From assembly GCF_045037415.1 (NCBI RefSeq), contig NZ_CP173438.1: a stretch of 64,000 bases of DNA, one strand, 5' to 3'. Origin of the DNA: Escherichia coli (lineage in GTDB: Bacteria > Pseudomonadota > Gammaproteobacteria > Enterobacterales > Enterobacteriaceae). The notes beneath the pieces are model-generated. The model was not told the DNA's origin, did not search any database, and saw nothing but the letters and a program-made list of their open reading frames with translations. This document shows positions 35,411 through 35,535 of the stretch, in pieces (the stretch's first letter is position 1; the number at the start of each line of letters is the position of its first letter). A program made the translations under genes and the position numbers.

Positions 35411-35535
35411 GAACCAGTTCCCACTGCCAGAGGGGAGGGGCGGGTCAAATCCCTGTGACCTGACGTCTTCCGGACTGCCCGCCCCATCGTTTTTTTATAC
35501 CCGCGAAAAATGAAATTTAACCAGGAGTGCCGCAT

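Follow-up and report, generated by a model that had tools for sequence, protein, structure and literature searches.

A probable cos packaging site between the HNH endonuclease and small terminase genes of an SfV/phiP27-type Escherichia coli prophage

The question raised by this locus is whether the short interval between an HNH endonuclease gene and a terminase small subunit gene (terS), at positions 35411-35535 of a 64,000-nucleotide (nt) stretch of Escherichia coli DNA (contig NZ_CP173438.1, assembly GCF_045037415.1; "the window" hereafter means this whole stretch), is the cohesive-end site (cos) at which the genome of the resident prophage is opened for packaging and, if so, at which bases the two strands would be cut. 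An original prediction made from the letters alone had described it as a structured, GC-rich interval and possible cos region, arguing from inverted repeats followed by a T-run just upstream of terS and from the HK97-like character of the packaging genes. Our analysis makes it highly probable that 35411-35535 constitutes the entire cos site of a ~40-kb prophage of the SfV/phiP27 type, cut as in the staggered-nick mechanism proposed below.

The cut positions follow from phage SfI, whose virion DNA was run-off sequenced from HNH and terS primers; relative to the prophage, the reads left a 10-nt gap, 5'-TGCCCGCCCC-3', from which the authors deduced cos packaging for SfI, contrasting it with the pac phages Sf6 and SfX (PMC3636060). 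The same 10-mer has a single occurrence in the window, which places the following two features (a vertical bar marks a cut or a record end).

35476-35485, + strand: cohesive end TGCCCGCCCC, a 10-nt overhang that includes the right arm of the inverted repeat (35478-35485) plus two bases.
35474-35477, - strand: left cut motif AC|TG (family consensus AC|CG), with the bottom-strand nick predicted at 35475/35476, CA|GT on the - strand.

The top-strand cut, i.e., the right boundary of the overhang, falls between 35485 and 35486. Read on the - strand, the left cut is CA|GT in the window and CG|GT in most relatives.

Sequence records of related phages converge on the same two boundaries. The SfI GenBank record ends in ...CTGCCCGCCCC| and restarts with |GTCGTTTTTTT, which coincides with the right cut, while in the phiP27 record the equivalent 10 positions, reading CGCCCGCCCC, are annotated with the misc_feature "cos-site." The record of Proteus phage Pm34 terminates exactly at ...GGAC|, the left boundary. 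A comparison with the cos sites of HK97-like phages, suggested as a check along with the original prediction, came out in its favor, the end of the HK97 record aligning with the right cut and the spacings being equal. The cos of SfII has been described as "spanning bp 59 to 125," a 67-bp span corresponding to about 35469-35535 in the window. Among close relatives the 10-mer is TGCCCGCCCC in 76/80 and CGCCCGCCCC in 3/80; across the 77 more diverged loci described below, 33 distinct 10-mers occur, all C-rich. The placing of a cos region between the HNH gene and terS is thus borne out by the mapped SfI cohesive end and by the phiP27 annotation at equivalent positions.

A run-off gap at both ends fits 3' overhangs, as 5' overhangs would yield an overlap, and 3' polarity is therefore to be expected of the SfI-type site. 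Taken with the 10-nt 3' overhang of HK97, this suggests that the 10-nt overhang in the window would likewise protrude 3'. Identity to experimentally mapped relatives establishes, at the level of sequence, what the cohesive end is and where it lies; the conserved tripartite architecture into which it fits is likewise shown, by the comparison below.

The genes on either side of the interval are those of a packaging machine.

35060-35410, + strand: HNH endonuclease gene, 116 aa; Pfam PF01844 (HNH), E=2.3e-16.
35411-35535: HNH-terS intergenic interval, between two + strand open reading frames (ORFs).
35523-35527, + strand: Shine-Dalgarno sequence AGGAG of terS, a sequence reading, 8 nt ahead of the ATG at 35536.
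35536-36030, + strand: terS, P27-family terminase small subunit (TerS), 164 aa, with its ATG at 35536; Pfam Terminase_4, E=1e-20.
36027-37760, + strand: terL, HK97-type terminase large subunit (TerL), 577 aa; Pfam TerL_ATPase and TerL_nuclease.

The HNH protein has a CxxxxC...CxxH zinc ribbon at its N terminus and, at its C terminus, the HNH domain with two CxxC motifs; its counterpart in E. coli DA33137, the closest complete genome, is annotated "HNH endonuclease," and its predicted role is that of accessory nuclease of the packaging machine. The terL product, the predicted packaging ATPase and nuclease, matches the HK97 TerL structure PDB 6Z6D over residues 112-556 (phmmer, E=6.1e-25). The order HNH, terS, terL is continued by portal, HK97-type protease and major capsid genes, as judged from ORFs and Pfam and in agreement with the PGAP annotation of DA33137. 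The HK97-like packaging module that had been predicted is accordingly confirmed, since TerL is homologous to HK97 TerL (6Z6D) and the HNH protein to HK97 gp74. The claim of a GC-rich interval holds for its left two thirds (35411-35489, 65.8% G+C) and fails for the right third, which is AT-rich (37.0%; 50.9% in the whole window).

Beside this module, a gene for a 202-aa DUF2441 protein (34380-34988, + strand) separates the Rz lysis gene from the HNH gene. The SfV homologue of the HNH gene (orf53) follows almost directly after the Rz genes, so that the DUF2441 gene looks inserted beside cos.

The same data bear on the possibility that the phage packages by the headful (pac) mechanism and that the interval holds only regulatory signals for terS. 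Nothing specific speaks for this, though the interval does include the terS ribosome-binding site. TerL groups with HK97, i.e., with the 3'-cos type; defined ends are known for SfI, whose site is identical and which differs in this from the pac phages Sf6 and SfX; SfIV has been reported to share this cos packaging; and a promoter/terminator scan found no promoter-like site in the interval. We therefore regard pac packaging as exceedingly improbable. A lambda-type cos was also considered and rejected, TerL matching the HK97-type families and structure and not gpA.

The anatomy of the site was drawn from relatives. Starting from a TerS protein alignment, a scan of one genome per species gave 80 loci, with TerS 45-97% identical to that of the window, spanning Enterobacterales, Pseudomonas, Burkholderiales and others. 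The nucleotide alignment was anchored on CGCG[AT]AA, found at most 260 nt upstream of terS in 77/80 loci, one of which is counted despite a stop codon in its terS; unless stated otherwise, the conservation figures below refer to these 77. An earlier TerS scan of viral contigs had returned only relatives with TerS 98-100% identical, unusable for covariation, among which the cohesive end is nearly invariant and variants of the left repeat arm are uncompensated. A same-strand HNH homologue lies upstream of terS in 74 of the 80 loci, and the cos core alignment of the 77 distinct loci is almost gap-free. In addition to the overhang and its left cut motif, the following elements can be distinguished, none assigned to a strand.

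35409-35424: degenerate dyad TAAGAACCAGTTCCCA, which the HNH stop codon overlaps; some relatives show it more clearly, as AAATGAGA-N-ATTCTCAT.
35432-35455: upstream G-rich box (G-box) GGGGAGGGGCGGGTCAAATCCCTG, which includes the left repeat arm (35437-35444).
35456-35473: spacer between G-box and cut, of low information content and almost without length variation.
35490-35496: run of seven T (T7), +5 to +11 from the top-strand cut.
35497-35520: downstream block ATACCCGCGAAAAATGAAATTTAA, with the invariant CCGCGAAA at 35501-35508 (+16 to +23) and then an A/T-rich tract.

Within the G-box, the G residues at 35438-35440 and the A residues at 35448-35449 are 99-100% conserved, and the box recurs in phiP27, Pm34, Klebsiella phi6.3, HK97 and the Bacillus phage Cherry. 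From the heptamer just after the G-run (TCAAATC in the window) to the left cut there are 24 nt in the window, HK97 and Cherry, and 23-24 nt over the 77 loci. At the left cut itself, AC (35474-35475) is conserved at 97-99% and G 35477 at 92%, the motif being ACCG or ACTG in 68/77. After the overhang the family order is RTCR, the T-run, ACCCGCGAAA and the A/T-rich tract to 35520, RTCR being the family form of the bases between overhang and T-run. The T residues at 35492-35495 are 94-100% conserved at a fixed distance both to the cut and to CCGCGAAA, and flanking columns outside the anchor are conserved as well, including A 35513-35514 at 100%.

The downstream block varies where TerS is very diverged, reading ACCCGATTTTTTT in HK97 (4 nt further out), TTCGCAGAAAAAT in Cherry and ACCGCAGG...GAAAAC in Pm34. 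That the G-box is kept while the downstream block differs with TerS suggests that TerS reads the block and that the G-box is read by the conserved TerL/HNH part of the machine. By analogy, the stretch from +5 to +35, comprising the T-run, CCGCGAAA and the A-tract, is a putative TerS binding site equivalent to cosB, and the G-box a candidate subsite for docking or termination by that TerL/HNH part. The minimal site bound by HK97 TerS has been mapped to +15 to +29, CTAACCCGATTTTTT, with a C:G pair at position 21 and an A-tract (PMC11331095); the window has ACCCGCG and an A-tract at +14 to +35, near that position, its TerS being without detectable similarity to HK97 gp1.

Two other readings of the G-box were set aside. 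The consensus of an integration host factor (IHF) site is WATCAANNNNTTR, and an IHF site in the TCAAATC part of the box was dropped for its poor fit in the window and in the Pseudomonas loci. A G-quadruplex was rejected too, only three G-runs being consistently present.

Further out, a TGAGA-N3-8-TCTCA-like dyad (at most 2 mismatches) lies 5-10 nt upstream of the G-box in 42/77 loci, compared to 7.1 in shuffles; HK97 has a dyad, AAATGAGAATGAATCGCAT, at the equivalent place by eye, the pattern search itself having matched another dyad further upstream. The dyad at 35409-35424 is tentatively counted as part of cos. Repeated GAAAAT/CAAATG motifs were observed still further upstream of the dyad in HK97 and in Pseudomonas loci; these repeats and the dyad could be further cos subsites or sites for a regulator.

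Two departures from the general pattern were observed among the relatives. An atypical core (GCAGACCGCCCGAACGACGGGGGGAGCC), with G-box and CCGCGAAA block retained, is seen in Pseudomonas punonensis, P. argentinensis and Pseudomonas sp. PA15, and no HNH homologue was found within the retrieved flank of these three loci; the core may represent a variant cos with another cut geometry. In the Edwardsiella phage EPP-1, TerS has a tandem duplication of ~37 residues of its basic N-terminal arm, a segment that would contact DNA by analogy with HK97.

What, then, of the inverted repeat on which the original prediction had leaned? The left arm GGGGCGGG (35437-35444) has a perfect complement, CCCGCCCC, at 35478-35485, with 33 nt between them, and the right arm is followed by ATCG and then by T7. 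Repeats and T-run are thus present where they had been named, while structure beyond chance expectation is not. Perfect repeats of at least 8 bp arose in 164/2000 (8.2%) dinucleotide-preserving shuffles of the interval, and the RNA fold is not unusually stable for the whole interval (z=-0.70) or for the hairpin alone (z=-1.69). It is instead the primary sequence of the interval, at fixed spacing, whose conservation far exceeds chance.

The arms could nevertheless be taken, together with T7, for a Rho-independent terminator, or for some other RNA or DNA hairpin, ending lysis/HNH transcription before terS. The coding strand does offer a perfect 8-bp G+C stem and seven T residues, and the predicted RNA structure of 35430-35498 (-28.4 kcal/mol) includes the GGGGCGGG/CCCGCCCC stem. 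Such terminators have a loop of ~3-8 nt and a U-run immediately after the stem, whereas here the loop measures 33 nt and 4 nt precede T7. The scan that found no promoter called no terminator either, the z-scores and the shuffles are as given above, and Rfam returned no match at E<=1 on either strand of 35000-36000. Nor do the arms covary: 67.0% of cells pair across the 77 loci, compared to 68.5% with shuffled partners and 55-66% when slid by 1-3 columns, RNAalifold predicted 0 pairs on the same loci, and close relatives in which a C-to-A change turns the left arm into GGGGGAGG retain TGCCCGCCCC unaltered, i.e., uncompensated. In lambdoid phages, moreover, late transcription must pass from the lysis genes over cos into the head genes, so that a strong stop at this point would be counterproductive. 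With scan, folds, shuffles, pair counts, RNAalifold and Rfam all negative, a Rho-independent terminator or known structured RNA was rejected, and a functional hairpin of any kind here appears very unlikely.

The repeat therefore lends no support to cos, there being no conserved hairpin in relatives: the argument from GGGCGGG/CCCGCCCC and the T-run does not hold. The right arm is the cohesive end itself and the left arm part of a separate conserved G-rich box. The complementarity of GGGGCGGG and CCCGCCCC is best read as a consequence of composition, the box being rich in G and the overhang in C, with no functional hairpin. With no stem conserved, the spacing between T7 and a stem carries no weight, and T7 appears to be a conserved piece of the downstream recognition block and not a terminator tail.

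For the cos site itself, a staggered-nick mechanism can be proposed. Late in infection or on induction, the P27-family TerS and the HK97-type TerL, aided by the adjacent HNH protein, would recognize the site on concatemeric DNA. The HNH protein would nick the bottom strand at AC|YG, 35475/35476 (GGAC|TG in the window), and TerL the top strand 10 nt downstream, at 35485/35486, whereupon the DNA would separate into ends with complementary 10-nt TGCCCGCCCC overhangs of 3' polarity. TerS, bound at about +5 to +35, would position the complex and remain on the end packaged first; the terS side would thus enter the capsid first, and the next cos would end packaging.

Several published observations are consistent with this scheme. 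In HK97, cos cleavage leaves 10-nt 3' overhangs and is stimulated by gp74 (PMC9410871; PMC11331095), and a division of labor in which TerL and the HNH protein cut one strand each has been proposed (PMC11331095; PMC12967558). The HNH proteins of Cherry and Wbeta are identical to the nickase N.phiGamma, whose measured nick specificity is CG|GT, the complement of AC^CG (Xu & Gupta, PMC3592412). This specificity agrees with the AC|CG left boundary of the family and fits the left boundary of Cherry's own cohesive end (GTAC|CG), a link not drawn in the 2012 paper that measured it (PMC3592412). We infer that the nick at AC|YG on the bottom strand would be the work of the HNH protein and that on the top strand the work of TerL.

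A number of points weigh against this interpretation. Deposited records do not all share the same ends: those of SfV and SfIV begin 17 nt further left (35468|35469), and that of EPP-1 begins 4 nt inside the overhang; for SfV, the SfI paper, in what it says of that phage, gives the packaging mechanism and position as postulated, not mapped (PMC3636060). The 3' polarity attributed to SfI is read from the word "gap," the paper being silent on polarity. The left cut of the window is AC|TG, where N.phiGamma prefers AC|CG. HK97 gp74 and the lactococcal HrdP are non-specific nucleases in vitro (PMC3592412; PMC12967558), so that sequence-specific nicking by the HNH protein of the window is not assured. 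No sequence similarity was detectable between the TerS of the window and HK97 gp1 or, by BLASTP, the Cherry TerS. Finally, activity of the cos of this particular prophage would have to be argued from its relatives, and binding to the G-box is putative.

Comparison with known systems places the site among its closest kin. The HNH-terS region is 95-98% identical in SfV, SfI, SfII, SfIV, Salmonella phage 118970_sal3 and several induced E. coli phages; in the Shigella Sf phages the intergenic interval is 95-100% identical and is flanked by the same HNH, TerS and TerL genes. The window copy differs from these in sitting in an E. coli chromosome, and the published Sf descriptions consist of the 10-mer or the 67-bp span, without subsite anatomy. 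The Stx2e phage phiP27, prototype of the P27 TerS family, has an identical G-box at the same spacing, the 10-nt cos CGCCCGCCCC equivalently placed and ACCCGCGAAA downstream, whereas its overhang begins with C instead of T, its TerS is ~50% identical and another A/T tract follows CGCGAAA.

HK97 is more distant. Its HNH protein (gp74, 38% identity to that of the window) and TerL are homologous, and its cos is laid out as GGGCAGGGGGGGGGATCAAATC, 24 nt, GAC|CGCCGCCAAA|GTTTG... Like the window, it has a G-rich box ending in TCAAATC, 24 nt to the left cut and 34 nt to the top-strand cut, a 10-nt C-rich overhang and, downstream, in HK97 at the place of TerS binding, ACCCG with an A/T tract. It differs in the overhang itself (CGCCGCCAAA), in having ACCCG 4 nt further from the cut, in a TerS without sequence similarity, in a gp74 without the N-terminal zinc ribbon and in the distance from the HNH gene to the cut, 319 nt compared to 65-75 nt in the window.

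The Bacillus anthracis phage Cherry (NC_007457.1) has GGGGCGGGTCGAAAA, 24 nt and GTAC|CGCCGCCCC, the 9-mer standing at both ends of the record. Its HNH protein is 36% identical to that of the window over 115 aa, i.e., full length with the zinc ribbon included (E=5e-17), while its TerS, annotated as P27 family, is the one not detectably similar by BLASTP. The gamma/Cherry/Wbeta group differs in its Gram-positive host and, for Cherry, in a terminal repeat of 9 nt, not 10, and in the downstream block TTCGCAGAAAAAT.

In phage lambda, cos consists of cosQ, cosN and cosB, that is, a nicking site preceded by an element that the incoming motor reaches first and followed by a binding region for the small terminase beside the terminase genes; lambda has 12-nt 5' overhangs, a gpA-type terminase and no HNH protein. 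The site in the window follows the same logic, but its TerL belongs to the HK97-type families (TerL_ATPase/TerL_nuclease), an HNH partner is present and there is no sequence similarity.

The prophage that carries the site extends from a tRNA-adjacent integrase to tail-fiber genes near 55 kb and combines lambdoid early genes, an HK97-type head/packaging module and an SfV-like contractile tail. Its integrase is the following.

15908-16933: prophage integrase, 341 aa, Pfam Phage_integrase, intact in the window and beside a tRNA (15765-16933 region).

ARAGORN gave no name to this tRNA, which is tRNA-Ser in DA33137. Compared to that genome, the late region (22857-55651) is 99.9% identical and the integrase/exonuclease region 98%, while within 14414-22857 the early region has parts with no match and others with no more than 89-95% identity, pointing to a mosaic. 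The region is present in 1165/5426 complete E. coli genomes.

These figures raise the question of whether the site might be a genuine cos by descent that is no longer used because the prophage is defective or domesticated. Many E. coli prophages are cryptic, about a fifth of the complete E. coli genomes carry the region and not all copies can be inducible, the corresponding integrase of DA33137 is annotated as frameshifted, and the early region of the window departs from that of DA33137, a sign of mosaicism. In the window, by contrast, the integrase ORF is intact at 341 aa, none of the HNH, terS, terL, portal, protease and capsid ORFs is truncated, and all conserved cos elements are intact and identical to those of the functional SfI and SfV. 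We consider a disused site unlikely, and a complete cos site, as proposed above, the far better account of the locus.

Other genes were noted within and around the prophage. A 463-aa P-loop ATPase (31507-32898, + strand; Pfam AAA_16, weak nSTAND1) has the late-regulation region on one side and the holin gene on the other, a typical moron position, and could be a phage-borne defense or exclusion gene; a PADLOC search of two neighboring moron genes gave nothing significant, with a weak P-loop match only for this ATPase. To the left of the prophage, a second tyrosine integrase (13274-14773; 420 aa, Arm-DNA-binding domain) beside a tRNA-Asn marks a separate element. Just past the tail-fiber end lies a transposase ORF (57520-58878, + strand; 452 aa, HTH and rve domains by Pfam), which we take to be IS3-like.

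As to what is new, the site would by its sequence belong to the known HNH-dependent cos family of the HK97/P27 type and is practically the mapped cos of SfI, hence already known; nearly identical Shigella phages have had this site mapped before, which makes the finding right but unremarkable. A broader proposal, which we advance tentatively and at somewhat less than even odds, is that HNH-dependent cos is a tripartite signal of fixed geometry, extending from Bacillus Wbeta-like to enterobacterial, Pseudomonas and Burkholderiales prophages and HK97, in which the G-box would be a cosQ-like element read by TerL/HNH, AC|CG the site of the HNH nickase and the TerS block a part that co-diverges with TerS. 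The G-box in this proposal takes the form GGGG-N-GGG-N-GGG-TCRAA, ~15-20 bp long and 23-24 bp before the cut; we found no description of it as a cos subsite in the literature covered, which excluded the older HK97, gamma/Cherry and phiP27 papers.

For this locus, the analysis locates at single-base resolution where packaging would begin, and hence where the genome would end, in a very common type of E. coli prophage, which may serve to delimit the phage chromosome, to predict the DNA packaged first and to design cos plasmids or transduction assays. The shared layout and the agreement between AC|CG and the nickase specificity offer a testable assignment of each nuclease to a strand, left open in the HK97 literature (PMC11331095). 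Conjointly, the G-box, the 23-24-nt spacer, AC|CG, a C-rich overhang of 9-10 nt and the TerS block provide a sequence rule for cos in uncultivated prophages; if the tripartite rule is true, cos sites and overhang boundaries would be predictable from sequence alone for thousands of prophages.

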